From the NCBI GenBank assembly GCA_023247725.1, contig JAHFFW010000003.1, positions 64,704 to 128,703 on the forward strand: DNA of 64,000 nt, in the 5' to 3' direction. Source of the stretch: Candidatus Omnitrophota bacterium (GTDB lineage: Bacteria; Omnitrophota; Gorgyraeia; Zapsychrales; JAHFFX01). Position numbers and translations under genes: made by a program. The stretch's first letter is position 1. Each line of letters begins with the position of its first letter. Below are positions 5,247-63,149 of the stretch, one piece after another. The notes below the pieces were generated by a model. That model saw only the letters and a program-made list of their open reading frames with translations. It was not told where the DNA came from and searched no databases.

Positions 5247-5490
5247 AAATATGAAAAGAGGAAGCAAATATCTTCATCAAAGACACGGAAAGACCACCGT
5301 GTCTTTTTTCCTTCGCCGGTCAAAAATTTATGGATCCCTACGGGCAAACCCTTGGTACCTTCATTATGCCCCGCCTGATCAGCAGCGGGCTTATCCGCTA
5401 ATGAATGCGATCGGCTTACCCCTCAGCAAACATCCAGCTTCGCTCAATTACTTTCCTGTTGAGCTTCGCAGAATAGCCCTGCGAAGCCGA

Positions 5491-23712: not shown

Positions 23713-25083
23713 TTATTCCTTCCGCAAATGCGACGGCAAAATATTGAGCTGCTGACGATACTTGCTGATCGTTCGGCGGGCGATGTTGAAACCTTTTTTC
23801 TGAAAATGTTCCTGCAGTTCCTGATCAGAGAGAGGGGCGGTCTTTTGTTCAGCATCAATCAAATCCTTGATCTCTTCTTTGATACTGCGGCTGGAGACGG
23901 GACCTTGTGTTTGATGGGGAAGACCTTGAGAAAAGAAAAACCGCAAGGGCACCAAGCCTTGCGGTGTATCCACATACTTGTTTTGGATGGCCCGGCTGAC
24001 GGTTGATTCATTATGGTTGATGGCGACAGCGACATCCTTGAGCGTCATGGGATGAATCGATAAGTGTGCTCCGCCAAAAAAATCTTTTTGCTTGTCTAGA
24101 ATATACTCCGCGATCTCCTTGATGGTTTGCCCTCGCTGCTCAAGGCTACGGATGAAATTCGTGGCATTGCGCAACTTCTCCTTCACAAATTCCTTCTCCG
24201 CCTCCTTGAGGTTTTTATCCAGAAGCAGTCTTTGATAAAGCAGGTTGATCCGCAGATTAGGCAACCCTTCCTGATTGACCGTCACTTGAAAACCTTCAAT
24301 GGGATCCTGGTGGATGATGACGTCGGGTTTGATATAAATATTGGCATTGATCGGACGGTAATTACGCGCAGGTTTTGGCTCGAGACTGGCGATTTTGTTC
24401 GCAGCGTCTTTAACCAGCTCTAAGCTTGTTGCCAATTTGCGGGCGATCTCACTATATTTGCGCGAGCCCACCTCGGCCAGAAATGAATCGATCATGGTGG
24501 CGCCCAAATCGGCAGGGTCATCATACTTAGCCGACAATTGAATCTTTAAACATTCCTTCAAATCACGGGAAGCAATTCCGACCGGTTCAAAATTCTGAAT
24601 TCGCTGCAAAACATGTTCAACCAAGGCCAGATGATTTGGGCAAAGGCTTTGGGCAATCTCATCGCAGGAGATCCGTAAATACCCATCTTCGTCCAAGTTC
24701 CCGATAATTGTTTCTCCAATTTTTAACTGCAGAGGTTCTGAAAATTCAAAGCGCAGCTGTTCTAGCAATGAATCTTCCAAAGGAAGTTCCTTAAAAAGAG
24801 GTTTTTCCTCCCAGCGTTCATCTTCGCTAAAAGACTCCATCCGTTGCAATCGGAGGATTTCTCTTTGGCGTTGAATGTTGTTTTTCGTGATGTCAGCATG
24901 AGCTGCCACAGAAACCATCTGGGGTTCATCTTCATTGATTTCTAAAAGGGGATTATTTTGCAATTCTTGTTCGATGGCAAGGTCAAGATCGGCCAATGGC
25001 AATGCGAGAATTGAGATCGATTGTTGCATGGAAGGAGCGAGGATGGTTTTTTGTACTTGGGACAAAGCAAGCTTTGTTTTCAT
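23713..25083 (-). CDS. rpoN: RNA polymerase sigma-54 factor
   Basis: N-terminal Gln/Leu-rich region I (LAPSMQQSISILALP), core-binding region, C-terminal HTH and RpoN box ARRTISKYR. Start taken at MKTKLALSQ. Confidence 0.93.
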   Translation of the reverse strand: MKTKLALSQVQKTILAPSMQQSISILALPLADLDLAIEQELQNNPLLEINEDEPQMVSVAAHADITKNNIQRQREILRLQRMESFSEDERWEEKPLFKELPLEDSLLEQLRFEFSEPLQLKIGETIIGNLDEDGYLRISCDEIAQSLCPNHLALVEHVLQRIQNFEPVGIASRDLKECLKIQLSAKYDDPADLGATMIDSFLAEVGSRKYSEIARKLATSLELVKDAANKIASLEPKPARNYRPINANIYIKPDVIIHQDPIEGFQVTVNQEGLPNLRINLLYQRLLLDKNLKEAEKEFVKEKLRNATNFIRSLEQRGQTIKEIAEYILDKQKDFFGGAHLSIHPMTLKDVAVAINHNESTVSRAIQNKYVDTPQGLVPLRFFFSQGLPHQTQGPVSSRSIKEEIKDLIDAEQKTAPLSDQELQEHFQKKGFNIARRTISKYRQQLNILPSHLRKE

Positions 25084-25224
25084 AGCAAGAAGTATACCAT
25101 ATTGCATTTTTTAAAGTAAAAATTTTTATCGGCACGACGAAATAGACCTCCGTAGATAAAAAACGCGTGGGATGTCCATTGATGTTTTTATTGGACAATA
25201 CCTTAAGTCGCTGCTGTGAGTTAT

Positions 25225-25408: not shown

Positions 25409-25547
25409 CTGTATTATGGGGTACGAAGGCATTGACGACAATTAAAGAGATGGTCATCCCACATTTCAATCACCTAATAACTATCGCTACCCCGAAAGCA
25501 GTTTTACATTCTTTTAAAGATTGCCATTAGAGTTCACGGAAGGAAGG

Positions 25548-25775: not shown

Positions 25776-25806
25776 GTCATATATATTAAAGAAAGGAAGA
25801 CCGACT

Positions 25807-27942: not shown

Positions 27943-27975
27943 AAAGCCTTTCGCCCCAGATGAGGAGGAAGTTGC

Positions 27976-28866: not shown

Positions 28867-28929
28867 GATGGAACGTGCTCGTTTCTGCCTTAGGGTCAAT
28901 TGCGCTCGCACCAAAAAAGGAGAGACCAA

Positions 28930-29577: not shown

Positions 29578-29619
29578 CCATCAAGCCTAAGTCATCAGCT
29601 AACGAGAGAAAGGATCACT

Positions 29620-30405
29620 ATGGGAAAGATCACCAGTGCCTTAAAAAAAGCCGCGGAAGAACGCTTGTACCGGATTGATAAGATTGCCAAGATTCGCGAA
29701 GAAAGCCGTTTGGTTGTTCGCAAAATGGGCAATTCCAGGGTGGATAGTCGGATTGTTTCCTATTTTGATCCCAAGGCCCTGATCACGGAACAGTATAAAG
29801 TTCTGCGGACCAATTTTCTTTCCTTAAATAAAGGTCGGCCGCCCAAAACCATGGTGATCACCAGTTCCCTTCATTCAGAAGGCAAGACCATCACCGCTCT
29901 AAACCTGGCTGTTTCTTTGGCGCACACGGTCCATAAGCCAAAGATTCTTATGATTGACGCGGACTTGCGCCGGGGGCGAATTTCTAAATATCTTGGAGTC
30001 GAACAGGAAAAAGGATTAACCGAAATCCTGGAGGGAAAAGGCCTTCTTGAAGAAGCCATGTTTCACATCGATCTAGAAAATCTGACATTCATGGCCTCTG
30101 GATCGGTACCACCGAACCCTTCGGAGTTATTGGCTTCTGATGCTATGCGCAATCTGATCCATGAAGTTCGGGGAAAGTTTGATTACGTTCTCATCGATAC
30201 CCCACCCATCATTTCCGTCACCGATGCTGGTATTGTGGGTGCGCTCGCCGAAGGTGTGCTCATGGTAATCCAGGCCGGGCGGACCCAGCGCGGCATTGTT
30301 GACCGTGCCACAGAACTTCTGCACCAGGCTCATGCCCGCTTGATCGGGCATGTGTTGACCAATATTGAGTATCATTTGCCGGAATATATTTATCGGTATT
30401 TATAA
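29620..30405 (+). CDS. Chain-length-determinant-associated protein tyrosine kinase (BY-kinase, EpsG/CpsD type)
   Basis: Walker A' and B motifs (ITSSLHSEGKTITALNLA, ILMIDADLRRG, VLIDTPP) and a C-terminal tyrosine cluster YHLPEYIYRYL. Confidence 0.85.
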   Translation: MGKITSALKKAAEERLYRIDKIAKIREESRLVVRKMGNSRVDSRIVSYFDPKALITEQYKVLRTNFLSLNKGRPPKTMVITSSLHSEGKTITALNLAVSLAHTVHKPKILMIDADLRRGRISKYLGVEQEKGLTEILEGKGLLEEAMFHIDLENLTFMASGSVPPNPSELLASDAMRNLIHEVRGKFDYVLIDTPPIISVTDAGIVGALAEGVLMVIQAGRTQRGIVDRATELLHQAHARLIGHVLTNIEYHLPEYIYRYL

Positions 30406-50364: not shown

Positions 50365-51138
50365 ATGAGTTCGGGATTACCTCCTATATTAATGTACCAT
50401 GGCATTATCGATGTTGAGAAAAACTTCCCCGAAGACCGGGAACCCGGAGCTTCTCTTTATGATTTACCGCTAGCGGTCTTTCGTCAGCATTTGGAGTTTT
50501 TGAAGAAAAACAATTTCCAAGTCAACACATGTGATTCGGATAAAAAGAAAAATGGCGGCAAGCAGGTTGTCCTGACATTTGATGACGGAGAGATGAACAA
50601 CTTCCTTCACGTGTTTCCAATGTTGCAACAATACGACTTTCCGGCTTATTTTTTTATCACGGTCGATCGGATCGGGAAAAAAGGATATATGGATTGGCCC
50701 CATCTTAAAGTGATGATTCAAAATAATCTGATCATTGGTTCGCATGGGATGCGCCATGAGATTCTGACCAAGTTGAATGAAGCGGAGTTGGTCCAAGAGT
50801 TGCGGTTGTCTCGCAAAATTTTAGAAGATCGTCTTCAAAAAAATATTTTTAGCTTCTCGGTCCCGCGGGGATTTTTCAATCTGCGAATTTTAAAACTTGC
50901 GAAGGAGGCCGGTTATTCAGAAATTTTTGTTTCCGGTTGTCCGCAGAATTTACCGGATGAATGCTGGGGCCGAATCGCCGTCAAAAGCCGCTGGGGAACA
51001 GATCGGTTAGCCATGGCGTTGGAAGGGCGTATCCCTTTGAACGAAAAAATTTTTGAGGCGGTCAAAAATACAATCCAATCCTGCATAGGGGATGAAAACT
51101 ACGATCGGTGGCGGGACAAAATATTAATGAAGTCTTGA
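50365..51138 (+). CDS. Polysaccharide deacetylase (CE4 / NodB homology domain; the exosortase-locus-associated type)
   Basis: VVLTFDDGEMNNF (the TFDDG motif), GSHGMRHE, and further His/Asp metal-binding contexts. Confidence 0.85.
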   Translation: MSSGLPPILMYHGIIDVEKNFPEDREPGASLYDLPLAVFRQHLEFLKKNNFQVNTCDSDKKKNGGKQVVLTFDDGEMNNFLHVFPMLQQYDFPAYFFITVDRIGKKGYMDWPHLKVMIQNNLIIGSHGMRHEILTKLNEAELVQELRLSRKILEDRLQKNIFSFSVPRGFFNLRILKLAKEAGYSEIFVSGCPQNLPDECWGRIAVKSRWGTDRLAMALEGRIPLNEKIFEAVKNTIQSCIGDENYDRWRDKILMKS

Positions 51139-51304: not shown

Positions 51305-51390
51305 TAAAGGCAAACCCGGGGAAACCCGGCGACGCAAAACTACAGGGCCTAAACCCTCGTTTATCGAGGCAAAGGTAGCCAGTTGCCAAA
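51305..51390 (+). ncRNA. Candidate cyclic-di-GMP-I (GEMM) riboswitch aptamer
   Basis: Read directly: GGCAAACC-[CCGGG-GAAA-CCCGG]-CGACGCAAAAC-TACA-GGGCCTAAACC-[CTCG-TTTAT-CGAG]-GCAAAGGTAGCC-AGTTGCC. This gives a GNRA-capped P2, an ACGCAAA(A/G)C linker, a GGCCUAAACC P3 segment and a P1 pairing GGCAA/TTGCC, matching GEMM-I hallmarks as I recall them. Confidence 0.6.
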
Positions 51391-51428
51391 ACAGAGAATA
51401 TTCAACCCGTCTTTATTTAACCTTCTAT

Positions 51429-51478
51429 GCCTATTCTTTGGTGTTTTGCGTGTGCCCGAGAATAGGGTTTTTATTTTC
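51429..51478 (+). terminator. Intrinsic terminator forming the riboswitch expression platform
   Basis: 8-bp stem CCTATTCT/AGAATAGG at 51430-51437 / 51459-51466, followed by GTTTTTATTTT. It lies 58 nt upstream of the RBS GGAAAGGAG and ATG 51536. Confidence 0.5.
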
Positions 51479-51535
51479 TGGTCAGATCATGTCCGTATGC
51501 TACTTTGGGTAACACAAGAGGGAAAGGAGTCAGGA

Positions 51536-53827
51536 ATGTCAGCTAATGAGTTAAGCAAAAGAGTTTTGCCCCTCGGTCTTATGTTTTTGTTCATGATGCC
51601 CTTGGCCTTACAGGCGTCGACATATTATGTCCGTCCGGATGGTGGCTCGGCAAGCCAGTGCACGGGGTTAAGCGATGCCCCTTATCCTGGTTCTGGCAAT
51701 AACCAAGCCTGTGCTTTTAATCATCCCTATTGGGCGCTGGCACCGCTGGGAAACAATCCGACTAAATTCGTCGGAGGAGACACACTGATCATTGATGGTT
51801 CTAATGGCGCCCAGTATATGATGGGATATGGAGCCCCGAATTCTGGCGACACCTCCATCTGTTATGCCAACTGGCCCTGGGATTGTTTCATGCGGCCGAT
51901 TCCTTCCGGACCCCGTCCCGACCAGCCGACGCGAATTCTGGGCAAGGGTTGGAATAACGGTTGCGCCAATCCGCCGCAATTGTGGGGCAATGAACGACCC
52001 AACACCATCATCAACTTAAATGGAAGCAGTAATGTCGAGGTGCAGTGTCTGGAAGTGACCGATCATTCCTCCTGCCAACTGGGAGGCCCAAGTCCTTGTA
52101 ATCGGGACAATCCTCCTTTCGGGCCTTGGGCGGTCACTGGCATTTCCGCATCCGATAGTTCGAATGTCTTACTAAAGAATCTCAATATCCATGGCTTGTA
52201 CCGCGGCCTTCACGCCGGCCGCTTGAAGGACTGGACTTTGGAAGACGTGAAGATTGTCGCGAATTCATTCGTTGGTTGGGATGGGGATATCGGCGCGTAC
52301 AATTCTTCCAATTCCGGGACGTTGAGTTTCAACCGGGTTAAAATCCTTTATAACGGTTGCGGGGAAACTTATCCGGATCGAAAGCCCTATAATTGTTACA
52401 GCCAGGACCAAGGCGGATATGGGGACGGATTGGGTACGCACCAGACCGGCGGCTACTGGATTTTTAATAATGTGGACTTCAGCCATAATGTTTCCGACGG
52501 ATTGGACCTTTTGTATCACAACGGCAATGGATCTATCACCATCAAGCGTTCTCGATTTGAAGGCAATGCCGGTAATCAGGTGAAGGTCAATGCCAATACC
52601 CTGATCGAAAATTCCTTGCTCGTAGGAAATTGTGGATACTTTAAAACGCAACCCTTCACCTATAATCCCAGCACGTTCAATAATTGTCGTGCTGCTGGCA
52701 GCACATTGGCTGCAGGGTTCGCAGCTGGCCGAACCATTGAAATCCGTAATTCGACGATCACGAGCAACGGCGATGTCGTGATCATGTCCTCCGGCGATGG
52801 TTGTAATGGAACCGAGGTCTTAAGGTCCAGGAATAATATCTTTTTGGGAGGAACGGAGTTTAATGACGGCTACGATCTTTCCGCTCTCTATTATGCGTCT
52901 GGCCGAACCGGTAATGGCGACGGGACTTGCGGCTCCGTGCCGTTTGATGACGATTATTCCGTGATTTGGAATACGAAGGGGAATAGCGCGGTCTGTTCCG
53001 GAAAACCTCATTCAAAATGTCTAGATCCGAAGCTCATCGGGCCGATTGTTCAATATTTCACTGGCGATACGTACAATCTTAATCTTTTATCGGATAGTCC
53101 AGCGAAAGATATTGCCTTGGTCATTGCGGGAATGTCGAGCCTTGATTACAACAGTTTTGATCGCGGATCGGTTTGGGATTCGGGTGCGTTCGAGTATGGA
53201 TCCGTTCCATCCGTGCCATCAGGAGGCGGGTCGAATCTGCTGCCGGTTTGTGGCAATGGAAAATTGGAGAGTCCTGAGCAATGCGATGACGGTAATCTCA
53301 ATAATGGTGACGGCTGCAATAACCTCTGTGTCAAAGAAATCGCTCTGACCCCGGTCTGCGGTAATGGGAAACTGGAAGGAACCGAGCAGTGCGATGATGG
53401 GAACCTCAATAATGGAGATGGCTGCAGCAGCGTTTGCGTTAAGGAAGCGCCAGTCTCGGTTTGCGGAAACGGAAAATTGGAAAGCGGCGAGCAATGCGAT
53501 GACGGTAATCTCGTTTCCGAGGATGGATGCAGCGCCAGCTGCCAAAAGGAACCTCCTCGGACGCCGGTCTGTGGTAACCGTGTCGTTGAACCCGGTGAAA
53601 CGTGTGATGATGGCAATACCATCGATGAAGATGGATGCAGCAGTCGTTGCCAAATCGAACCTCCCACAACCAAATTTGTTTGCGGTAACGGGAAAAGAGA
53701 GGGTTCGGAACAATGCGATGATGGGAATTTGAGAGATGGCGATGGGTGCAGCCACAGTTGCACAATTGAATATAAGTCTCCTCCTAGAAAACAACCGGTC
53801 ATAAAAAAGCGAGTCATTCGAAGGTAA
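51536..53827 (+). CDS. Secreted right-handed beta-helix (pectate-lyase-fold) protein with five C-terminal cysteine-rich repeats (CGNGxxExxEQCDDGNxxxGDGCSxxC)
   Basis: Signal peptide MSANELSKRVLPLGLMFLFMMPLALQAS. Parallel beta-helix sequence features (NVEVQCLEVTD, NVLLKNLNIHG, repeated N/G-rich rungs). Five ~35-aa Cys-rich repeats of the Myxococcus-type disulfide repeat. No PEP-CTERM motif. Confidence 0.7.
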   Translation: MSANELSKRVLPLGLMFLFMMPLALQASTYYVRPDGGSASQCTGLSDAPYPGSGNNQACAFNHPYWALAPLGNNPTKFVGGDTLIIDGSNGAQYMMGYGAPNSGDTSICYANWPWDCFMRPIPSGPRPDQPTRILGKGWNNGCANPPQLWGNERPNTIINLNGSSNVEVQCLEVTDHSSCQLGGPSPCNRDNPPFGPWAVTGISASDSSNVLLKNLNIHGLYRGLHAGRLKDWTLEDVKIVANSFVGWDGDIGAYNSSNSGTLSFNRVKILYNGCGETYPDRKPYNCYSQDQGGYGDGLGTHQTGGYWIFNNVDFSHNVSDGLDLLYHNGNGSITIKRSRFEGNAGNQVKVNANTLIENSLLVGNCGYFKTQPFTYNPSTFNNCRAAGSTLAAGFAAGRTIEIRNSTITSNGDVVIMSSGDGCNGTEVLRSRNNIFLGGTEFNDGYDLSALYYASGRTGNGDGTCGSVPFDDDYSVIWNTKGNSAVCSGKPHSKCLDPKLIGPIVQYFTGDTYNLNLLSDSPAKDIALVIAGMSSLDYNSFDRGSVWDSGAFEYGSVPSVPSGGGSNLLPVCGNGKLESPEQCDDGNLNNGDGCNNLCVKEIALTPVCGNGKLEGTEQCDDGNLNNGDGCSSVCVKEAPVSVCGNGKLESGEQCDDGNLVSEDGCSASCQKEPPRTPVCGNRVVEPGETCDDGNTIDEDGCSSRCQIEPPTTKFVCGNGKREGSEQCDDGNLRDGDGCSHSCTIEYKSPPRKQPVIKKRVIRR
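53243..53770 (+). repeat. Five tandem ~105-bp coding repeats (the Cys-rich modules of the 51536 gene)
   Basis: Direct DNA repeats ccggt(t/c)tg(t/c)gg(c/t)aatgg(a/g)aaa(t/c)tggaa... repeated five times. They also create spurious long antisense ORFs. Confidence 0.8.
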
Positions 53828-54017: not shown

Positions 54018-54404
54018 ATGAAGAGAATGAAAACCGCCAAGGGTCTCACGCTGGTTGAGTTGCTCATTGCCGTGTTTCTGCTTTCTGTCGGTATCGCCAG
54101 CACCCTCATGTTTTTTTCGAATGCCATGCTCTCGGCGGATTTTGCCGGGGACATCAGCGTCGCTTCGACCCATGCCGAACATGTTCTTGAAGAGATGAAG
54201 TCTCGTCGGAGCCTAGAAGAGATCCAGGGCACCAATTGGCAAGAATGGGCCTTGCAACAGGATTTCAATATGCTGCCGAATGAAAGGGTGGAGGTCAACT
54301 TCGGCAATATTGAAGGTGCCCTTATGGATGTTACAGCCCAAATCCATTGGATCAAACGGGCCCGCGATAATCAGGTTTCTTTTATGACGACCTTATCCCG
54401 ATGA
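54018..54404 (+). CDS. Prepilin-type protein (PilV/GspI-like minor pilin)
   Basis: MKRMKTAKGLTLVELLIAVFLLSVGIAS; possibly starts at ATG 54027. Confidence 0.75.
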   Translation: MKRMKTAKGLTLVELLIAVFLLSVGIASTLMFFSNAMLSADFAGDISVASTHAEHVLEEMKSRRSLEEIQGTNWQEWALQQDFNMLPNERVEVNFGNIEGALMDVTAQIHWIKRARDNQVSFMTTLSR

Positions 54405-54883
54405 AGATACAAAAGCGGAAGGCTTTCACCTTACTGGAAATTTTGGTGACGGTCGCCCTGTTCACCTTTTTGGTGGCAGCGGTCTATCAGGCTTTTTTGG
54501 TAGGAAATCGATCCTGGACTAGTTATAACTACAGGGTCTCCATGCAAAGAGAATTGCGCTGGACCCTTTATGCATTGGTCAAGGATCTGCGAGAAGCCAA
54601 GGAAATTTTGGTGACTCAAGATGATACGAAGAGCGTTTTGAGCTTTAATAAACCAGGATCTGGCATCATCATTTACACCTGGTTCAAAGCGGGTGATCGG
54701 GCACAGCATTTGCTCCGGCAAGAAGAATCCAAAGAACGAACGATTGCCCAGCATGTTTCAAATCTGGAATTTATTCAGCCTTCCACCAAAGAAATTTTCG
54801 TTGATATCACGGTCACAGAGAGACCATTATTCGCCGCGCCATTGAGCTTGAATTTGAAACAAAAAGTCAAGGTCCGAATATAA
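54401..54883 (+). CDS. Prepilin-type protein (PilW/GspJ-like minor pilin)
   Basis: MKIQKRKAFTLLEILVTVALFTFLVAAVYQAFL. Confidence 0.75.
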   Translation: MKIQKRKAFTLLEILVTVALFTFLVAAVYQAFLVGNRSWTSYNYRVSMQRELRWTLYALVKDLREAKEILVTQDDTKSVLSFNKPGSGIIIYTWFKAGDRAQHLLRQEESKERTIAQHVSNLEFIQPSTKEIFVDITVTERPLFAAPLSLNLKQKVKVRI

Positions 54884-54897
54884 ATTTATAAAAGTCC

Positions 54898-56037
54898 ATG
54901 GGCCACAGAATTTCAAACAATAGGGGAGCTGCCCTCATCCTGGCCTATATTGTCATGGCTGCTTTAGTGACTCTTTCCGCCGGGTTTGCCCTTTCCACAT
55001 TCAATGAACTCAACGATGCCCGTCGATACCGGGATTCGTTGGCTGCCTTTTGGCTGGCGGAATCGGCCCTGGCGTCTTTTCTGCAAAATACCTCCATGCT
55101 GGATAAATCCGGAGCCATGAATATGACTTACCCTCAGGGCAGCGTGGTTTTACAAAAAGATGATTCTTATCCCACGAAAAGGTTGGTCACCGCGACGGGC
55201 AACGTGGGTGGGACCAAACGCAGTTTGCAGTTGGAGTTTCCCGCGTTAGCGCCGGAGGTATTCAATAATACGGTTTCGGTCAAAGGGGATATTCTTATTT
55301 CTGGGAAAAAATCCAATCTTGCGTTTAACGACAAAACCCGGATCAGCGGCCAGGTCGCCAAGAGCTCGCAGTTTTCTACGGTTAATTTTGAAGACCTCAA
55401 AGAAAAAACCGATTCGCATCTGGTTTCCATGCTGTATCCCGACGCAAATAATAATGGAGTCGTGGACGAATTTGAGGATTTTGTTCAGGTGAATCGAAAT
55501 TTGGTCACGACCTACCCGAAGGAGGAAGTCATTTATGTCAAGGGCAACGATACTTATACGGTTGTTCCCAGCAGTGCCTTGAAGGGCAAAAAGATTATTT
55601 TCGTGGAAGGAAGCCGCAGCGGCAAAGGCAATGTGATCATTCAATATATGGATGGCTGGCAAGATGACGAAAATTTAACCATCATCGCGACCGGCAATGT
55701 CACCTTCAATCAGCTGGGGATGGGCCAAACCAATTCGCAGCTTAATGTCATTGCCTGGGGCGGTTATTCGGAAACTGCCGCTTTGCCGGGAACTCGTCGA
55801 GGCATGATCTATACGCATGGAATCGCGAGTTTTGATGCCATTGATGAAACCTCGATCACTTACGGCAGTGTCGTGGCCAATGAAGGCTTAAAAATCAAAG
55901 AAATCTGGTCATATAAATCCTTTTACTATGCGGATACTCGCATCAATGGAGTTGTGCCTCCAGGTTTTGAAGGTCTTATCGGTGGAAGACTTTCGAGTGG
56001 GTATGCCGTCAAACCTAATGCATGGCGGGAAATTTAG
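54898..56037 (+). CDS. PilX-N-domain minor pilin / large pseudopilin
   Basis: MGHRISNNRGAALILAYIVMAALVTLSAGFALSTFNELNDARRYRDSLAAFWLAESAL has the PilX N-terminal architecture; 379 aa. Confidence 0.65.
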   Translation: MGHRISNNRGAALILAYIVMAALVTLSAGFALSTFNELNDARRYRDSLAAFWLAESALASFLQNTSMLDKSGAMNMTYPQGSVVLQKDDSYPTKRLVTATGNVGGTKRSLQLEFPALAPEVFNNTVSVKGDILISGKKSNLAFNDKTRISGQVAKSSQFSTVNFEDLKEKTDSHLVSMLYPDANNNGVVDEFEDFVQVNRNLVTTYPKEEVIYVKGNDTYTVVPSSALKGKKIIFVEGSRSGKGNVIIQYMDGWQDDENLTIIATGNVTFNQLGMGQTNSQLNVIAWGGYSETAALPGTRRGMIYTHGIASFDAIDETSITYGSVVANEGLKIKEIWSYKSFYYADTRINGVVPPGFEGLIGGRLSSGYAVKPNAWREI

Positions 56038-56038
56038 A

Positions 56039-56611
56039 ATGAGCCACAGAATTTATCTTGTGATTGGAATTGGGATTACGATTTTTGTGATTTTTTCCGC
56101 AATCGTTAACCGTTCCATCAATAAAACTTTTCGCGGACCGGAGATTGCACAACCAAAGGCACAAAAAACATCACCATCACCACCGCCGGAAAAAAAGTCA
56201 AAGCTTCCCGAACCTTTGGTTGTGCCGCCAAAGTCGGTTGGCCGACATACCTTGGACCCCGATGATCCTGCGCGGTTCGGAATTCTTGTGCAAAAAGAAG
56301 GGCAGGTCAAAACCCAGTCTCAATGGGACATCGATATGGATCGGGTTTTGATCCGTTCCCAAGTCCCAATACAGAAAGCGCCGGCCTTTGCTCAAACCAA
56401 AGTAACCGCAAAGGAATTTCAAAAAAAAATGCAACTCGTCAATGAACGGATTACACAATGCGAACGCCTCGCGGCTAACGATCCCAGCAATGAAGAAGCT
56501 AGGCAAAAACTACAGACCTTTTACATGCTCAAGTCGACACTGGCCTCTTTGGAACATGCGATTGTTATCCCCGAATCCTCCAATTCCGGTTTAGAAAATT
56601 CGCCGAAGTGA
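56039..56611 (+). CDS. Membrane-anchored Pro-rich / coiled-coil protein; hypothetical (possible pilus-assembly accessory)
   Basis: TM YLVIGIGITIFVIFSAIV, a Pro-rich stretch KTSPSPPPEKKSKLPEPLVVPP, and a C-terminal helical region. Confidence 0.4.
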   Translation: MSHRIYLVIGIGITIFVIFSAIVNRSINKTFRGPEIAQPKAQKTSPSPPPEKKSKLPEPLVVPPKSVGRHTLDPDDPARFGILVQKEGQVKTQSQWDIDMDRVLIRSQVPIQKAPAFAQTKVTAKEFQKKMQLVNERITQCERLAANDPSNEEARQKLQTFYMLKSTLASLEHAIVIPESSNSGLENSPK

Positions 56612-56809: not shown

Positions 56810-57964
56810 ATGGCAAAATTTCTTTTTTGGTATTTTTTATTTTTAATCGGATATTGCTATTTTGGTTATCCGATCATACTGAGCCTCCTTGCTCGTCTAC
56901 GACCGAGACCGATTAAGAAGGCGCCTATGTTTCCTTTTGTTAGTATCATTATTTCCGTCTGCAATGAAGCGGAGGTGATTGAAAAAAAACTAAAGAATCT
57001 TCTGGCTTCGGATTACCCGGCGGAACAAATGGAAATACTGGTCGGTTCCGATGGGTGCGTGGATCAAACAGTCCAAATCATAAAGGAATTTTCTGATTAT
57101 AGGATAAGGCTCTTTGAATTCCCCTCCCGCCGGGGAAAATCGAGTGTTTTAAATGATCTTGTCCCGCAGGCTAAAGGTGAGATCCTGATCTTCACCGATG
57201 CTAGGCAAATCTTTGCTAAGAATGGCATAGAGGCTTTAGTCCAAAATTTTGCCGATCCGAAGGTCGGCTGCGCCAGTGGAGAATTGATTCTGGGCCAAAG
57301 TCAGGCATCGACTGGCAAGGGCATTCACTTGTATTGGAATTATGAAAAATTTTTACGCCGCGCCGAAAGCCAAATCCATTCGATGATCGGAGCGACCGGC
57401 GCCATTTATGCAATCCGCAAAGAACTGTACACCCCACTGCCGCCCGATGTCGTGCTTGATGACGTGTATATCCCGTTGAGGGTGGTGGAACGCGGTTTCC
57501 GGTGCATTTTTGACAACGAGGCTAGGGCCTACGATCAGGTTGCAGAAAACCCGTCGCAGGAGCATGCCCGCAAAGCGCGGACCCTGTATGGGAATTACCA
57601 GATCTTTACCCTCTTTTCCGATATGTTCAATCCGGCCAAAAGTTATTTGGCTTTTCAGCTTTTCTCTCATAAATTTTTGCGCGTTATGGTGCCTTTTTTA
57701 CTGGTGGGATTATTCGCGGTCAATATCCCTCTTATGTTTGAACCATTCTACCGGGTGATATTTTTTTCGCAGGTCATATTTTATGGGCTGGCTTTTTTAG
57801 GGTACCAGTTAAGAAATTCAAAATGGATTATCCCTGAGCCTATTTCCCGACTGACATACATTCCATATGTTTTTTGCCTGTTGAATTATTCGGCATTGGT
57901 AGGATTTGTTCGATTTGTGACTTCCGGGCAAAGCGTGGCTTGGGAAAAGGCCGGGGATGTCTAA
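56810..57964 (+). CDS. Integral-membrane GT2 family glycosyltransferase
   Basis: Two N-terminal TM segments, a GT2 catalytic domain (FVSIIISVCNEAEV...LVGSDGCVDQT, FTDARQ) and four C-terminal TM segments. No QxxRW motif was found. Confidence 0.75.
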   Translation: MAKFLFWYFLFLIGYCYFGYPIILSLLARLRPRPIKKAPMFPFVSIIISVCNEAEVIEKKLKNLLASDYPAEQMEILVGSDGCVDQTVQIIKEFSDYRIRLFEFPSRRGKSSVLNDLVPQAKGEILIFTDARQIFAKNGIEALVQNFADPKVGCASGELILGQSQASTGKGIHLYWNYEKFLRRAESQIHSMIGATGAIYAIRKELYTPLPPDVVLDDVYIPLRVVERGFRCIFDNEARAYDQVAENPSQEHARKARTLYGNYQIFTLFSDMFNPAKSYLAFQLFSHKFLRVMVPFLLVGLFAVNIPLMFEPFYRVIFFSQVIFYGLAFLGYQLRNSKWIIPEPISRLTYIPYVFCLLNYSALVGFVRFVTSGQSVAWEKAGDV

Positions 57965-58805
57965 GGCTCTTAAAGATTTTATGCAAAAAATCATCAAAAT
58001 TTATTCTCGCGAGTTGATTGTGGCCGTGGTGTTTTTGCTGGCCTATGCGCCCATATTCGTTTGGATGTGGAACCGCTGGTTTGCCCCGGATTCCTATTAC
58101 AGCCACGGGATTCTTGTCCCTTTTGTGACCGGCTATCTCATTTGGCTAAATAGAGACACCTTAAAAAATGTGGAAAAGCGACAAGGTGAAATGGTGGGCA
58201 TGGTTATGCTCGCCTTCGGGATCTTTGCCCTGATCTTAAGTTCGTTTTTACGGAGCTATCCGGCGGGGGCACTCACGATGATTGTGGTGTTGGCGGGTCT
58301 TATCATTACGTTTTTTGGCACTCGCGTCATGAAGACGATCGCCTTCCCGATTGCCTTTTTATTTTTCATGATTCCTTTGCCTGAGTATATGATTACGAAG
58401 ATCAGTTTTAATATGAAAATTTTTGCCGCTCAAATCGCTACCGATATCCTTAATAATCATTTGCGTATTCCGGCCTTGCGCGAAGGAAGTCTGATTAAAA
58501 TGAGAAGCGCTTATGTGATGGTCGATGATGTGTGCAGTGGTTTGCGTTCGCTGATTTCGTTATCAGCGCTGGGAAGTGTTTTTGCTTACTGGATGAAACG
58601 GCCTATGTACAAGCGGATCCTACTTTTTCTTCTCACCATTCCCATTGCGATCATCACGAATGTCGTTCGTGTCATCCTTTTGGCCACGATCAGTGAAGTT
58701 TGGGGACCGCAATTTGCAACCGGCTTGACTCACGATATTTCGGGTTTTTTGATGTTCGCCTTGGCTTTTGTTTTATTATACGCAACCGCGAAAGTGATTG
58801 AATGA
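57957..58805 (+). CDS. Exosortase (XrtA/EpsH family)
   Basis: Eight TM segments with conserved exosortase motifs YSHG, FFMIPLPE, the catalytic Cys in DDVCSGLRSL, and NVVRVILL. Confidence 0.92.
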   Translation: MSKALKDFMQKIIKIYSRELIVAVVFLLAYAPIFVWMWNRWFAPDSYYSHGILVPFVTGYLIWLNRDTLKNVEKRQGEMVGMVMLAFGIFALILSSFLRSYPAGALTMIVVLAGLIITFFGTRVMKTIAFPIAFLFFMIPLPEYMITKISFNMKIFAAQIATDILNNHLRIPALREGSLIKMRSAYVMVDDVCSGLRSLISLSALGSVFAYWMKRPMYKRILLFLLTIPIAIITNVVRVILLATISEVWGPQFATGLTHDISGFLMFALAFVLLYATAKVIE

Positions 58806-59443
58806 GATTAAATCAAAACCAGACATTTTGGGGGACAATTTTTTTTCTTGGTTTGGCCGGAATTATTTCTTGGATATTTTATTACCGAGAATTTACTCAA
58901 AAAGATACCATCGATATCCACAATTTTCCGAAGACAATTGGTGAATGGAAAGGGGAGGACCTGCCAATTTCAGAATACGAATACGGTATTTTAGAAACGC
59001 GCAACGTCCTCGCCCGAAAATATATTCATCCCGATCAACGGATTGTCTATCTTTTGCTCGTCTATTCGCAACATAATCGGAAAGTGACGCATCCTCCAGA
59101 AATCTGCTACACCGGAGGAGGGATTTCCATTCTCGAAAATGTCACTACTCCTATTGAACCCCTACACTTCACTGAAAAGATTATGGCAAACCGGCTTTTA
59201 TTGGAATACAAAGGGGCAAGGCAATATGCGTTTTACTGGTTCAAAGTTGGATCTTCCTACACGCCCAGTTACTGGAAACAGCAAATCCTCATTGTTTCTA
59301 ATATTCTAGAGGGGCGCTCCCGCGGTTGTGCCCTGATTCGCGTCTCCAGCGATATCCTTGACAAAAATACCGACATCGCTACAAGAAATGTAACAGAGTT
59401 TACCAATCTTCTTTTACCCTTGCTCTCTACCTACCTGCCTTAA
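58802..59443 (+). CDS. Exosortase-associated EpsI family protein
   Basis: N-terminal TM, then the conserved HPPEICYTGGG motif typical of EpsI; translationally coupled to the exosortase gene. Confidence 0.85.
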   Translation: MRLNQNQTFWGTIFFLGLAGIISWIFYYREFTQKDTIDIHNFPKTIGEWKGEDLPISEYEYGILETRNVLARKYIHPDQRIVYLLLVYSQHNRKVTHPPEICYTGGGISILENVTTPIEPLHFTEKIMANRLLLEYKGARQYAFYWFKVGSSYTPSYWKQQILIVSNILEGRSRGCALIRVSSDILDKNTDIATRNVTEFTNLLLPLLSTYLP

Positions 59444-59673
59444 CCATTTCCAATTCAACATCCTCGTCTCCTAATTTCCAAAAAAGTTACCTGCCTCTCT
59501 TTGTATATAAAATAAACATTGTCTAAAATTATAAACCACACAATGGGGTAGTTTGTCTATAGATGTCTGAGTGTGTCATAGGTTGGGAAGATTTTTCCAT
59601 TTCATTGTTCCTATAACTATAAGTGCCACAAGTAATTAAATAAATATTGAATTCTAAAAATGCAATCCAACCT

Positions 59674-59689
59674 TGGCATAGAAGTTGCT
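59674..59689 (+). promoter_or_regulatory. Sigma-54 (-24/-12) promoter: TGGCAT-A-GAAG-TTGCT
   Basis: GG at 59675-76 and GC at 59687-88 with the canonical 10-nt separation. Matches TGGCAC-G-N4-TTGCW at 11 of 12 defined positions. It sits in an AT-rich 300-bp intergenic region about 70 nt upstream of ATG 59757. Confidence 0.65.
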
Positions 59690-59756
59690 TATATAAGGAT
59701 GCGTTGTTGTATAGGAAAAGAATTTCAACTTTTTGAACCCTACAACTCATTACACT

Positions 59757-60605
59757 ATGCAACCATCCAAACTGAACTCCCCAAGGTATCTGGTAATAAG
59801 TCTTCTTTTACTGATGGTCTTTGGTTCTTTACCGAGACAGGCAGAGGCCGTGACTTTTGTAAAGCCACAGGACGCTCGCCTCGTAATTGCAGAGGGGAAG
59901 ATTAATGAAATTCCAGAAAATTTGCCTTCCGAGTCTAAATCTCATGCCCCTGAACCTGCGACTCTAGCTTTGTTTGGCAGCGGAATCTTTGGAATGATCG
60001 TTAGTTTTTTGAAGAGGGCTTATTTGGTTGCCAAAAGAATTTTTGATATAATCGTGTCTTTATTAGGCATTTTAATTCTATCGCCTTTATTTCTTCTGGC
60101 TGCAATTCTTATCAAAAGCTCATCCAAGGGGCCGATTCTCTATAAACAAATTCGGGTTGGCCAAAAGGGGAAACTCTTTGAAATTTACAAATTTCGCTCT
60201 ATGAAAATGGATGCGGAAAAGGAGTGCGGGCCAGTCTGGGCCAAGAAAGATGATGACCGCTTGATTACGGTAGGAAAATTTTTAAGAATGAGTCGAATTG
60301 ATGAGTTGCCCCAATTTTTCAATATCCTCAAGGGCGATATGAGCTTGATCGGTCCTAGGCCCGAACGGCCGGTTTTTGTGGAAAAGTTTAAAGAAATGAT
60401 CCCAGATTACGAAAAGCGATTATTGGTTAAGCCAGGGATCACCGGTTTAGCCCAGGTTTGGCATAAGTACGATGAAACCATTAAGGATGTACGTAAAAAG
60501 ATCAAATACGATGTTCTTTACATTAAGAAACTGAATTTTGGGACTGATGTGAGAATTTTTTTGAGAACCTTTCTGGTCGTTTTAACAGGGCAGGGGGCCC
60601 AATAG
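59757..60605 (+). CDS. Polyprenyl-phosphate sugar phosphotransferase (bacterial sugar transferase, small WbaP/PssY-like type) whose open frame begins with a signal peptide plus an internal PEP-CTERM-like motif
   Basis: Catalytic domain RIFDIIVSLLGILILSPLFLLAAILIK...FEIYKFRSM...SLIGPRPERP. N-terminally in the same frame: signal peptide MQPSKLNSPRYLVISLLLLMVFGSLPRQAEA, a 35-aa spacer, then PEPATLALFGSGIFGMIVSFLKR. Confidence 0.8.
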   Translation: MQPSKLNSPRYLVISLLLLMVFGSLPRQAEAVTFVKPQDARLVIAEGKINEIPENLPSESKSHAPEPATLALFGSGIFGMIVSFLKRAYLVAKRIFDIIVSLLGILILSPLFLLAAILIKSSSKGPILYKQIRVGQKGKLFEIYKFRSMKMDAEKECGPVWAKKDDDRLITVGKFLRMSRIDELPQFFNILKGDMSLIGPRPERPVFVEKFKEMIPDYEKRLLVKPGITGLAQVWHKYDETIKDVRKKIKYDVLYIKKLNFGTDVRIFLRTFLVVLTGQGAQ

Positions 60606-60686: not shown

Positions 60687-61553
60687 ATGAAAAAGTCATT
60701 CATTACAATTGGGGCATTGCTCATCTGCACAGCTCCAGTTTGGGCTCAGCCTTTTTCCGCGCCCATGGGCAGCGATACCTACGGAATCAGTCAAGGAGGA
60801 GCCAATAATCTTTTGATCCCGACGCCTAACGACGATAACGATAATCCCGGGCCTTATGGCGGAACCCCTTATACTCTAGGTGGAGGACCCAATCCGGCTG
60901 ACATCAATGACGCTATCAATCTATTATTGGGCACAAACTATGTCCATAATTCCGACGTGGATTTTCTTCGCCATACTGGACCGGATAATGCCTGGCAGGA
61001 TTTAAGTTCCCAAAATCAACAGGGACCTTTCGTTTTTATTTCGTTAACCGCAGATTTTACTAACAGCCTTTATACATACGACGTCGGTGATCCGACCACT
61101 CTTTATCAAGTCATTCCCGGCCAGACAGGATACGGTTTTGTGGGTGACGGAAGCGCAGGAAAGCCGTTTGTTGGCGGGGTCAATCCTTTATCGTCAAACA
61201 ATTTTGGCTGGGCTCTGGTGAGTGATTATAATGGCACGGAATATATTTGGGATTCTAACCCGGCGTTCAATCCGGATGATTTAGATCACATGCTAACCTA
61301 TCATTTGGCTAACCTCCAGGGTCGTACCGTTTATGTCGATGTCGATGGAAATATTCAGCAATATAAATTTAACGATCCTTACCTTTTGGCTTGGGAAGAC
61401 CTTCCATTACGAAATGGTAAACTTGGGGACGAAGATTACGACGATTCCATATTTCTGGTTGATCGAGTTCGGCCTATACCAGAACCCATCAGTTTAGTCT
61501 TATTGGCCAGTGGCTTCATGGGAATGATCGGATTGAAAAGAAAAATAGGATAA
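60687..61553 (+). CDS. PEP-CTERM sorting-domain protein (exosortase substrate)
   Basis: Signal peptide MKKSFITIGALLICTAPVWAQ; C-terminal PIPEPISLVLLASGFMGMIGLKRKIG. Confidence 0.9.
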   Translation: MKKSFITIGALLICTAPVWAQPFSAPMGSDTYGISQGGANNLLIPTPNDDNDNPGPYGGTPYTLGGGPNPADINDAINLLLGTNYVHNSDVDFLRHTGPDNAWQDLSSQNQQGPFVFISLTADFTNSLYTYDVGDPTTLYQVIPGQTGYGFVGDGSAGKPFVGGVNPLSSNNFGWALVSDYNGTEYIWDSNPAFNPDDLDHMLTYHLANLQGRTVYVDVDGNIQQYKFNDPYLLAWEDLPLRNGKLGDEDYDDSIFLVDRVRPIPEPISLVLLASGFMGMIGLKRKIG

Positions 61554-61597: not shown

Positions 61598-61927
61598 ATG
61601 ATTAGTAAGCTCATCCGCAATGCCAATGTAGCTATCCTTAGCGTGCTTCTACCTTACATCTATGGTTGCTCTGGGGGGGGAGGTGGGGGTGGCAATTCAC
61701 TTTCCGAACTTTTGGGACCAGGAGCAGGAACTGGCGCGGGAGCAACGACTGCAGGAGCCGGCAGCGGGATCGATGCTGGTTTTCTTGCTTCGAGTTTATC
61801 TACCTCGAGCGAAGGCTTAGGAAACCATATTGCTTCAATCCATAATCCTGAGCCAACAACCATGGCCTTATTAGGTTCTGGCATTATGGCCATGGCCTTT
61901 TTAATGAATAAAAGCAAAAAATCATAA
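61598..61927 (+). CDS. Small Gly/Ala/Ser-rich protein with both a lipoprotein signal peptide and a PEP-CTERM domain
   Basis: Lipobox LLPYIYGC followed by Gly7. Low-complexity middle. C-terminal NPEPTTMALLGSGIMAMAFLMNKSKKS. Confidence 0.85.
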   Translation: MISKLIRNANVAILSVLLPYIYGCSGGGGGGGNSLSELLGPGAGTGAGATTAGAGSGIDAGFLASSLSTSSEGLGNHIASIHNPEPTTMALLGSGIMAMAFLMNKSKKS

Positions 61928-61959
61928 TTTAGTATTCTAAATTGAAAAAATTATAAAAT

Positions 61960-61994
61960 AAGGCAGGTTTAAAACACAACCTGCCTTATTTTTT
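61960..61994 (+). terminator. Rho-independent terminator
   Basis: 10-bp perfect stem AAGGCAGGTT/AACCTGCCTT, loop TAAAACAC, then ATTTTTTG. Confidence 0.85.
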
Positions 61995-62276: not shown

Positions 62277-63149
62277 ATGACACCGGAACGCTCTGCCAAA
62301 AATGTCATTGATTTAATTCGTTTCTCACTAAACACCTTATTTCAAAATCCCCTCATCGCCTACCCGTTTGTTATCATTGCCTTTATCCAACTGTTTGTTT
62401 TAGAAATTTTTTATTTCGCTCCTCGTTATCCTTTGTCCATTTTTTTTGGGCCTTTGATCCGAACCCTTTATGGAGAGGGCTATTTGCATTATCCTTACAA
62501 TTTTATCCTTCTACCAAAGATGTTCCAATATGCACAAATCTTTATTTATATTTTTATCAGTAGTTTCTTGATCGCCGTATCGGTTGCTACAATCGAATAT
62601 ATCAACAATGACAAAAAAGTTACTTTTGGCATGATGGTCAAAAAAATGCTTCCCCAATACGTTCACATTTGTTTGGCTTCAATTTTCATGTTTATGGCCA
62701 TCTTTGGCTTCTTGAAACTTTATGGGCTTGCCTATGACCGTGCGTCTCTTATCCAATCCACTTCCGGAAAATTTTACCTGATCAAAAGACTCGTCATGGA
62801 GGGAGCCTCCTATATTACGGTATTGATTCAGATTTTAGTGACGACAATTTTTGCTTATGTCATCACGCTCATTGCCATTGAAAAACGCAAAGTCTTCAGT
62901 GCACTTTGGAAAAATTTCCGTTACCTGCGCACGACATTCTTTTTTATTTTTTCGATGGTTTTAATTCCGACCTTATTTTATCTACCAGTCTTAGTATTGC
63001 GAGACAATATGCCCATCTTGGGCAACGGAATGTTTCCAAGTTTAAGGGGGTGGGTGATCGTTTTAAGCATCCTGGTTTTGACGGCCATTGATTCCATCAT
63101 TTATACTGCGGTGACCAGTTTTTATTTGTTGAAACAGGAACATCGATGA
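62277..63149 (+). CDS. Integral membrane protein, hypothetical (6-7 TM)
   Basis: Hydrophobic segments throughout; no recognisable catalytic motif. Confidence 0.5.
   Translation: MTPERSAKNVIDLIRFSLNTLFQNPLIAYPFVIIAFIQLFVLEIFYFAPRYPLSIFFGPLIRTLYGEGYLHYPYNFILLPKMFQYAQIFIYIFISSFLIAVSVATIEYINNDKKVTFGMMVKKMLPQYVHICLASIFMFMAIFGFLKLYGLAYDRASLIQSTSGKFYLIKRLVMEGASYITVLIQILVTTIFAYVITLIAIEKRKVFSALWKNFRYLRTTFFFIFSMVLIPTLFYLPVLVLRDNMPILGNGMFPSLRGWVIVLSILVLTAIDSIIYTAVTSFYLLKQEHR

Follow-up and report, generated by a model that had tools for sequence, protein, structure and literature searches.

Can the recognition signal of a protein-sorting enzyme be built into the enzyme that starts a glycan? The question is raised by a gene in a 64-kb stretch of DNA from a Candidatus Omnitrophota bacterium (GenBank assembly GCA_023247725.1, contig JAHFFW010000003.1, positions 64,704 to 128,703 of the forward strand), the whole of which is called the window here and is numbered from its first letter. 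The gene encodes a small phosphoglycosyl transferase (PGT) whose open reading frame (ORF) also holds, upstream of the enzyme, a signal peptide, a short linker and a PEP-CTERM sorting signal, as found in the substrates of exosortases. The original prediction had described this arrangement as an in-frame fusion of a miniature exosortase-substrate module with a small priming transferase, and had left two readings: a genuine fusion from which an exosortase frees a small exported peptide, or a tiny PEP-CTERM gene that has lost its stop codon. The open frame, the homologues and the metagenome loci described below uphold the fusion, and their sequences indicate one genuine, anciently fused gene. As to its role, I consider it probable, though with limited assurance, that the PEP helix is an anchor with its N-terminus outside which is recognised by the exosortase and places the priming enzyme there.

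One reading frame

The frame runs from the ATG at 59757 to the TAG at 60603-60605 and codes for 282 amino acids with not a single in-frame stop. Its predicted signal peptide consists of a basic n-region (MQPSKLNSPR), a hydrophobic core (YLVISLLLLMVFGSL) and a c-region (PRQAEA), and signal peptidase would cut after A31; the same n/h/c layout is common to all 43 aligned homologues, where it mostly ends in AWA followed by T. The linker, put at 35 residues in the original prediction, measures 32 (V32-H63). Among homologues it varies from 32 to 52 residues, with semi-conserved KPxDA and IP motifs, and in the AlphaFold model it is disordered, the predicted local distance difference test (pLDDT) score being below 50 for residues 26-75. 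The APEP motif, the PEP-CTERM-type helix and a basic junction follow (Table 1). The junction, residues 85-94, has four positive charges (K86, R87, K93 and R94) and no negative one, and after residue 94 the chain goes on with IFDIIVSLLGILILSPLFLL.

Public gene calls place the start of this gene too far downstream, by which the signal peptide is hidden. The window's own protein (P0001) is called from Met20, at 59814 instead of 59757, and the orthologue P0101 of locus L084 is called from a point after its signal peptide, at 8001 instead of 7920, where the true ORF has the signal peptide upstream. Annotation pipelines and gene callers give such proteins generic names and often mis-start them.

Taken alone, both PEP-CTERM scores are marginal. 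The profile PF07589 matches residues 64-83 with 21.5 bits against a gathering score of 20.7, and TIGR02595 reaches 17.0 bits against a cut-off of 16, so that the case for the module depends on how it compares with its relatives. Thousands of these came out of a search of 5.8 billion proteins, and I analysed the best 120. They are 55-72% identical to the window's protein, nearly all have lengths of 250-310 amino acids, and in most the match takes in the N-terminal module; for many, PF07589 and PF02397 are among the precomputed domains, and the named ones come from metagenome-assembled genomes (MAGs) of Candidatus Omnitrophota. In all 121 close homologues the module, read as (A/V)PE(P/S)-helix-basic-Tyr-KR, is in frame with the PGT. 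The strict pattern PEP-helix-basic-Tyr-KR occurs in 113 of the 121, and the remaining eight depart from it only in a single basic residue where the pattern asks for two; in the 113 that match, the motif reads APEP 110 times, VPEP twice and APES once. In a 43-row alignment A64, P65, E66, P67, L72, G74, Y89, K93, R94 and D97 are invariant, and G76, G79 and M80 of the helix are at least 90% conserved. APEP is thus invariant while the mean column identity of this alignment is 53%, a conservation that appears to go beyond the need of a plain anchor.

The same arrangement is found in environmental DNA. A 40-residue profile of the PEP-helix junction, built from an Omnitrophota-only alignment, retrieved 76 metagenome loci, including a few near-duplicates. 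The PEP helix is in frame with the PGT in 63 of these 76, a fraction biased by the query, which reaches into the first PGT residues; the counts of signal peptides, synteny and promoters are independent of this bias. A signal-peptide-like hydrophobic region precedes the PEP in each of the 59 loci that are complete at the 5' end. Given the 121 homologues and the 63 metagenome loci, the PEP-CTERM module in the PGT appears to be no chance pattern.

The alternative that would make the question disappear is a pair of genes or an artefact: the stop of a small PEP-CTERM gene was lost, by mutation or sequencing error, or the enzyme is made separately from the TTG at 60024. The codon TAT of Tyr89 (60021-60023) is indeed one substitution away from TAA, and the TTG follows immediately (60024-60026); both had been predicted one base too far upstream. 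The Shine-Dalgarno-like AAGAGGG (60012-60018) stands 5 nt before this TTG, and the identical protein P0001 has been called from Met20, so start calls are uncertain here. However, Tyr89 is invariant in all 43 aligned homologues, and the junction is open in all 121, as would not be expected of a recently lost stop. The original prediction had proposed to look among orthologues for a separate small PEP-CTERM ORF; they are fused throughout. In nine loci that were read at the DNA level, codon 89 is TAT or TAC in eight and encodes Phe in the ninth, the Arg codons around it vary synonymously between loci, and codon 90 (TTG, TAC, GCG, CTG, ATT, ATT, CAC and so on) offers no conserved start codon. The purine run AAG AGG, for its part, simply encodes the Lys-Arg tail of the helix. 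I therefore give the two-gene account hardly any credence: a recent loss of the stop or a sequencing error is refuted by the conservation of Tyr89 and the open frames, and the TTG as a conserved internal start is refuted by codon 90 of the other loci, where it is no start. In this particular genome an internal start at 60024 is conceivable, with AAGAGGG ahead of it.

The motif RY-x3-KR-x-x-D also opens ordinary small PGTs, such as those of L083 (Bacillus) and L022. As ordinary small PGTs open with this basic-Tyr-x3-Lys-Arg-x-x-Asp, the ancestral seam is probably to be sought at about residue 87/88, near the place given in the original prediction. The junction there marks, at most, an ancient gene fusion.

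The transferase

The enzyme part is matched by PF02397 (Bac_transf) over residues 93-276 with an E-value of 2.6e-67, and it is the only Bac_transf-type gene detected in the window. In the 43-row alignment of the PGT family D182, E183 and the segment P200-P205 (PRPERP) are invariant, as is P110, and S109 is at least 90% conserved. The closest solved relatives in a PDB sequence search are WbaP and PglC; residues 10-189 of PglC align with residues 92-280 of the query, at about 38% identity. The AlphaFold model, made from 43 sequences, has a mean pLDDT of 72.7, with block means mostly above 80 across much of 81-230. In it a long helix runs from 77 to 107 and, with a break at Ser109-Pro110, a second one from 109 to 122, and this modelled helix-break-helix corresponds to the re-entrant helix pattern of monotopic PGTs. 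Foldseek matches the model to PglC (8e37_A) with an E-value of 1.1e-12 over 186 aligned columns, at 39% identity and with a TM-score of 0.78 on the target, and also to PglC 8g1n and WbaP 8t53; it found nothing further of significance. With the fold of PglC, a Ser-Pro break and an Asp-Glu dyad, the enzyme part is assigned as a PglC-type small PGT with about 88 extra N-terminal residues. It is predicted to transfer sugar-1-phosphate to polyprenyl phosphate.

The characters of a small PGT are found here, namely a Bac_transf domain with Asp-Glu and PRP, a re-entrant helix preceded by K93/R94, and the fold of PglC (8e37, 8g1n; PF02397), with the Ser-Pro break in the re-entrant helix in common. However, PglC starts about 9 residues before this helix and has no membrane-spanning segment, whereas the PGT of the window adds a signal peptide, a periplasmic linker and what is predicted to be a true transmembrane helix, all within the extra N-terminal residues. 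In a monotopic enzyme nothing crosses the membrane, and this one is no longer strictly monotopic. Nor is it a large exopolysaccharide (EPS) PGT, for which a full-length match is expected, including the N-terminal multi-helix, nucleotide-binding-like region. TIGR03025 scores 297.5 against a cut-off of 295.55, but only profile positions 249-444 of 445 match, and TIGR03013 (EpsB_2) scores 266.5, under its cut-off of 393.35. The PGTs of these two families resemble the present one in being tied to an exosortase locus and in their homologous catalytic domain (266-297 bits), but they are about 445 amino acids long, with a multi-helix N-terminal domain and without PEP, and the PGT of the window matches only the last 195 or so positions.

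By the definition of the PEP-CTERM signal the protein is equally a mixed case. It has the PEP (P65-E-P67), a hydrophobic helix of the expected 14-17 residues or so (residues 68-84) and a basic cluster (K86/R87); it has an N-terminal signal peptide, read from its n/h/c regions and the AEA-V site and kept in homologues; and the genome also has an exosortase gene (57957-58805), some 950 bp upstream of that of the PGT. The one departure is position, as 195 residues come after the basic cluster. In the definition of Haft et al. 2006 (PMC1569441) the PEP-CTERM domain is C-terminal, with fewer than 10 residues following it in 87% of members, and copies at atypical positions were judged probably non-functional. 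As the PGT departs in position and agrees in the other characters, I do not class it with the ordinary PEP-CTERM proteins.

The exosortase neighbourhood

Directly upstream of the PGT gene lie the genes of an exosortase and of the exosortase-associated protein EpsI (Table 1). Among the NCBIfam profiles no model of a named Xrt subtype reaches its cut-off on the exosortase of the window. The catalytic Cys, Arg and His are invariant in nine exosortases that adjoin PEP-anchored PGTs (that of the window and eight others), and judged by these residues the neighbouring exosortases look active. An exosortase and EpsI stand directly upstream of the PGT in the window and in L001, L002, L084, L085, L086, L089, L005, L087 and L088. 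Thirty-six metagenome loci include 1.5 kb or more of upstream sequence; 34 of these have the exosortase and EpsI upstream, and in 30 the distance to the predicted start is no more than 600 nt. The control was a profile search of genome contigs with the full-length alignment, in which the search patterns came from the catalytic domain. The matches listed were mostly ordinary large PGTs with no Omnitrophota locus among them, L005 and L006 being chance finds, and of these matches only 6 of about 78 ordinary PGT loci have an exosortase nearby.

The PEP helix also resembles the sorting signals of the PEP-CTERM proteins, or cargo, encoded at the same locus. Pairs of PGT helix and cargo signal are PEPATLALFGSG and PEPTTMALLGSG in the window, PEPTSMALFGSG and PEPTSMALLGTG in L085, MPEPATLTLLGTG and IPEPATLTLLGLG in L088, and PEPATLTLLGTG and PEPATLTLLGLG in L006; in the window the signal of cargo protein 2 closely resembles that of the PGT, APEPATLALFGSGIFGM. 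Over nine loci the best same-locus identity averages 7.2/15, against 6.1/15 across loci, and the observed value was reached by only 60 of 20000 permutations in a test that ignores the relatedness of the loci. I regard this resemblance as supportive only.

These observations bear on the possibility of a passive anchor, in which a small PGT happened to acquire one more N-out helix through an old fusion, its PEP being a relic in which the exosortase has no part. The topology is compatible with it, small PGTs tolerate N-terminal additions (as in the large and bifunctional classes of the PGT literature), and the basic-Tyr-KR junction also occurs in ordinary small PGTs. However, a relic would hardly account for an APEP that is invariant at 55-72% identity and is kept even as residues 2-4 of the forms beginning M-PEP described below, nor for the contrast between 34 of 36 and 6 of about 78 loci with an exosortase, nor for a helix that resembles the cargo signals of its own locus. 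A passive anchor is, in my opinion, very unlikely.

What precedes the PEP motif

Loci L005 (a Planctomycetota MAG) and L006 (a Brocadiia MAG) encode small PGTs that open directly with the PEP motif. The frame of L005 reads stop-Arg-Ser-MPEPATILVLGSGAGALYLRFFRKRYAEFKRAID, and no upstream extension is possible. Of the best 120 relatives of the L005 protein, at 52-97% identity, 88 start with M-P-E-P and 14 bear a signal peptide ahead of a passenger of 10-25 residues; the rest are mostly truncated calls. The M-PEP family (P0121-P0240) consists of small PGTs of about 220 amino acids with the helix and the basic junction and without signal peptide or passenger, and its named members are from Planctomycetota/Brocadiia. 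Three M-PEP loci have enough flanking DNA, L005 (PGT at 4998-5672), L087 (8001-8675) and L088 (8001-8657), and in all three an exosortase and EpsI lie upstream. Likewise, in L089 (Omnitrophota) a PGT with a 10-residue passenger has the exosortase and EpsI directly upstream. A profile search of 1.84 billion cluster representatives gave 58 clusters at E <= 1e-10; in P0259, P0266, P0277, P0278, P0308 and P0310 the PEP-helix-PGT is preceded by a signal peptide and a genuine passenger domain of 130-260 residues. Long-passenger PGTs (P0265 and that of L090 included) carry an Arg-rich insert like that of the Zixibacteria/GN15 loci L024 and L073.

Passenger length therefore varies, from 0 through about 10 and about 35 to 130-260 residues, and what does not change is the PEP motif with its helix and basic junction, the small PGT behind them and an exosortase in the neighbourhood. 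Since the M-PEP sister group has no passenger, an exported peptide cannot be the general purpose of the design. Of the first reading offered by the original prediction the fusion thus stands, whereas the small exported peptide falls away as a general purpose, M-PEP PGTs without passenger adjoining exosortase and EpsI as well.

PEP-CTERM signals in internal positions were also found outside PGTs. At 96-7598 of L167 (GCA_020427265.1, JAGQOS010000182.1) an ORF of 2500 amino acids, uninterrupted in the standard code, contains ten PEP-CTERM units. After most of them come RRRR, a few residues and a new signal-peptide-like helix with an AxA site, with no Met at the next unit. The layout suggests a release of the units by signal peptidase and exosortase acting in concert. 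Further such PEP-CTERM 'polyproteins' are P0279, P0293, P0301, P0315, P0348, P0349, P0354 and P0358, the check at the DNA level covering L167 only.

Anchoring or processing

Put together, the PGT would be inserted via Sec and its signal peptide removed after A31, and the 32-residue linker would remain in the periplasm. The APEP would then lie at the outer face of the inner membrane, the PEP-CTERM-type helix would span the membrane from outside to inside, and K86, R87, K93 and R94 would keep the junction cytoplasmic. The N-out, catalytic-domain-in topology of the original prediction agrees with the charge pattern, in which the helix is followed by four positive charges and preceded by an N-tail that is acidic, short or absent. 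The PglC-type re-entrant helix would dip into the inner leaflet, and the catalytic domain would move sugar-1-phosphate onto polyprenyl phosphate. The PEP helix would be a membrane anchor which the upstream exosortase/EpsI pair recognises in the way it recognises the cargo of that exosortase. The exosortase may also clip the short linker, and either way the helix and the enzyme would stay in the membrane.

The main rival is ordinary substrate processing, in which the exosortase cleaves at the PEP and releases or transfers the 32-residue peptide, the helix with the PGT being a membrane remnant; its purpose would be to make peptide and enzyme in a 1:1 ratio, or to activate the enzyme by clipping it. 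Several observations fit this. The sorting signal scores above curated cut-offs, the neighbouring exosortase retains its catalytic residues, and the linker has the semi-conserved KPxDA and IP. There are relatives with real passenger domains of 130-260 residues before PEP-helix-PGT, and in L167 ten PEP-CTERM units are each followed by more polypeptide, with the internal signals maintained. On the other hand, the 88 relatives of L005 that begin M-PEP have nothing to release, and three such loci adjoin exosortase and EpsI; passengers from 0 to about 260 residues leave no particular peptide as the conserved product; and the linker is modelled as disordered. I regard processing as a serious rival to docking at the exosortase and as possible, although on the unlikely side. 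The two are not mutually exclusive, because the helix and the enzyme would stay in the membrane after any cut at the PEP.

Some points weigh against an anchor recognised by the exosortase. The contact of the PEP helix with the exosortase, its recognition there and the coupling function are inferred, and signal-peptide cleavage and topology are predicted from sequence rules. Two of the 36 metagenome loci are without an exosortase, and none was detectable within 5 kb in L006 of the Brocadiia. The permutation test of helix against cargo ignores the kinship of the Omnitrophota loci, and its effect is modest. The passengers of 130-260 residues and the PEP-CTERM polyproteins suggest an internal signal that is cleaved for sorting. 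What favours the anchor recognised by the exosortase is that the M-PEP forms keep both the motif and the neighbourhood with nothing to sort.

A probable sigma-54 operon

A sigma-54 promoter directly upstream of the gene had been predicted, and its conservation in orthologous and metagenome loci supports it. The -24/-12 element (Table 1) is one of only two exact sigma-54 matches in the window, where the number of one-mismatch matches (9 against 4.8 expected) is not above chance. It lies in a 313-bp intergenic region, which agrees with the long-intergenic criterion of Haft 2006. TTGGCAY-N5-TTGCT is invariant among five aligned orthologous upstream regions, and 40 of 53 metagenome loci have an exact TGGCAY-N5-TTGCH no more than 260 nt upstream. 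Some 100-120 bp upstream of the -24 element there are three TGTC motifs, and similar arrays with about 10-bp spacing are found in the same relative position in L001, L002, L084, L085 and L086; these are probable binding sites of the sigma-54 activator. Between the TGTC repeats and the -24/-12 element (59530-59700) lies a conserved AT-rich block, TGAAATAAA, where a bending site of the integration host factor (IHF) type would be expected. An Rfam scan of the 5' region (59380-59820) gave no match to a riboswitch or any other RNA family.

The gene of cargo protein 1 lies 81 bp from the PGT gene, followed by that of cargo protein 2. As a terminator scan between the PGT and the two cargo genes gave nothing convincing, and a strong hairpin stands after the second cargo gene, the sigma-54 operon appears to consist of the PGT and the two cargo genes, closed by the hairpin. 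The exosortase and glycosyltransferase genes lie upstream of the promoter. With the PGT as first gene in a sigma-54 operon with two cargo genes, priming and cargo would be switched together, one enhancer-dependent switch turning on both. A GAF histidine kinase and a sigma-54 response regulator are encoded just downstream on the window's own contig; together with a TPR gene, such kinase (GAF-HisKA) and response-regulator genes follow the PGT there and in orthologous loci, L001 excepted. They are candidates for a control of the PrsK-PrsR-PrsT type, which Haft 2006 describes for PEP-CTERM genes.

Table 1. Positions in the window of the fusion gene, its parts and associated features
Feature	Position	Strand	Basis
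Exosortase (EpsH family), 282 aa, Cys193/Arg238/His259	57957..58805	+	PF09721 E 1.6e-65; TIGR02602 165.5 bits vs 105.6
EpsI (exosortase-associated protein, DUF3485), 213 aa	58802..59443	+	TIGR02914 85.8 bits vs 42.8; PF11984 E 1.6e-30
Three TGTC motifs, 10-bp spacing (59554, 59564, 59574)	59554..59577	+	Read from sequence
Sigma-54 promoter, -24/-12 element TGGCATAGAAGTTGCT, ending 67 nt before the ATG	59674..59689	+	Exact TGGCAY-N5-TTGCW match
PEP-CTERM-anchored small PGT, whole gene, 282 aa plus stop	59757..60605	+	ORF reading, profile matches, alignment
Sec-type signal peptide, aa 1-31, predicted cut between AEA and V	59757..59849	+	n/h/c layout in sequence, same in homologues
Short periplasmic linker ('passenger'), aa 32-63, VTFVKPQDA...EIP...SKSH	59850..59945	+	Sequence, alignment
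A-P-E-P exosortase recognition motif, aa 64-67	59946..59957	+	Invariant in 43-row alignment
PEP-CTERM-type transmembrane helix, aa 68-84, ATLALFGSGIFGMIVSF	59958..60008	+	PF07589/TIGR02595 match
Cytoplasmic basic junction, aa 85-94, LKRAYLVAKR, including Tyr89	60009..60038	+	Charges, alignment
Re-entrant membrane helix of the PGT, aa 95-122, Ser109-Pro110 break (60081-60086)	60039..60122	+	AlphaFold model, alignment
Cytoplasmic catalytic domain, aa 123-282, Asp182-Glu183 (60300-60305), PRPERP 200-205	60123..60602	+	PF02397, alignment, Foldseek
PEP-CTERM cargo protein 1 (DUF4114 domain), ending ...PIPEPISLVLLASGFMGMIGLKRKIG	60687..61553	+	TIGR02595 18.4 bits; PF13448
PEP-CTERM cargo protein 2 (109 aa), ending ...NPEPTTMALLGSGIMAMAFLMNKSKKS	61598..61927	+	TIGR02595 19.6 bits; PF07589 22.3 bits
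15-bp-stem hairpin flanked by A/T runs, probable terminator	61955..61992		Terminator scan; putative function
rpoN, sigma-54 gene	23713..25107	-	TIGR02395 381.7 bits vs 277

Other genes of the cluster

The window and the 133-kb contig to which it belongs share a gene order with five orthologous contigs, the longest of 3.4 Mb. This order begins with a GT2 glycosyltransferase, the exosortase, EpsI, a gap of 220-390 bp, the fusion gene and at least one PEP-CTERM protein, and continues with a 290-residue membrane protein, a TPR protein, the GAF histidine kinase, the sigma-54 response regulator and a PocR/GAF protein. L001, on the 3.4-Mb contig, keeps the core from the exosortase to the PEP-CTERM protein and does not share the downstream regulatory genes. 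The 290-residue protein (62277-63149, forward strand) is a multi-helix membrane protein that matches neither Pfam nor NCBIfam. Its gene stands between those of the cargo and that of the TPR protein; its orthologues in L002, L084, L085 and L086 are 36-44% identical and stand in the same position.

Further upstream, the window contains homologues of XrtA-system accessory proteins, several of which score just below the equivalog cut-offs. The set comprises an export protein, a chain-length determinant, an ATPase, a tyrosine kinase, a Wzm/Wzt ABC exporter, an O-antigen-ligase-like protein and a polysaccharide deacetylase. At 26647-30405 are the chain-length determinant (TIGR03007, 267 against 279 bits), the ATPase (TIGR03015, 308 against 324.5) and the tyrosine kinase, on which the XrtA-specific model TIGR03018 stays well under its cut-off. 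The window may hold an unclassified exosortase system, its exosortase fitting no named subtype. A Wza-like polysaccharide export gene (25753-26601) heads the block of XrtA-system-like genes, and about 340 nt upstream of it is the second exact sigma-54 match of the window, TGGCATGTTACTTGCT (25395-25410, forward strand). Between the glycosyltransferases and the exosortase, at 51383-53827 and 54018-56611, lie two pseudopilin-like genes with N-terminal methylation motifs, two ORFs without assigned function and the gene of an 814-residue DUF4215 repeat protein; this set recurs in L084 and L085.

Relation to known systems and implications

Exosortases were predicted in 2006 and are needed for flocs, biofilms and motility; a 2025 study has their cargo attached 'possibly' to polysaccharide. 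The locus agrees with the PEP-CTERM/exosortase system as first described (PMC1569441) in its PEP, its helix of about 17 residues, its basic cluster and its signal peptide, in having exosortase and EpsI within an EPS cluster, in the upstream sigma-54 -24/-12 element, and in the TPR, kinase and sigma-54 response-regulator genes nearby. It differs in that the 195 enzyme residues of the PGT follow the domain, a placement that is strictly conserved, and in that the 'cargo' is only 32 residues long and is absent in the M-PEP relatives. One paper on the monotopic PGT superfamily divides it into small, large and bifunctional classes, and its class overview does not mention a form with PEP-CTERM, exosortase or signal peptide. 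That the priming enzyme can be a control point of EPS synthesis, through contact with a partner protein, is reported for a WbaP-type PGT that is activated by a single-domain response regulator (PMC12802240); there the partner is a soluble cytoplasmic regulator, whereas here the proposed contact is between an intramembrane helix and a sorting enzyme. A PGT anchored by a PEP-CTERM signal or tied to an exosortase in this way was not described in a full-text literature search, which leaves out most subscription journals. The architecture is thus undescribed as far as searched, and the proteins and the pair PF07589/PF02397 are already in the databases.

Sortase A offers a comparison, by analogy only. 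It is a Cys transpeptidase that recognises a signal of motif, helix and basic tail and moves its cargo to a polyprenyl-linked glycan precursor, lipid II, the synthesis of which starts with a phosphoglycosyl transferase. Exosortases are polytopic membrane proteins unrelated to sortases, and I know of no fusion of a sorting signal to MraY. By this analogy the PGT could make its lipid-linked sugar at the active site of the exosortase, and the polyprenyl-linked glycan would be the acceptor for PEP-CTERM cargo, a proposal that I hold to be doubtful and put forward as speculation. One may speculate further that the polysaccharide deacetylase encoded in the cluster (50365-51138) could expose a free amine on the glycan.

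The fusion recurs in at least two phyla, its named homologues coming from Omnitrophota and Planctomycetota, and it indicates that PEP-CTERM signals need not be C-terminal. The catalogue of monotopic PGTs, with its small, large and bifunctional members, is without a class that has a sorting-signal anchor. The system is small enough for testing, with one small membrane enzyme, one exosortase and one motif. In these bacteria the helix that an exosortase would recognise sits on the enzyme that would make the first lipid-linked sugar, a genetic link of sorting and priming which is direct genetic evidence that the two enzymes may act in contact, and which bears on what exosortases attach their cargo to and why they always sit in polysaccharide clusters. 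If the glycan is indeed the acceptor, the pair would be a Gram-negative counterpart of sortase and lipid II, and the fusion a 'Rosetta stone' for the question of the acceptor.

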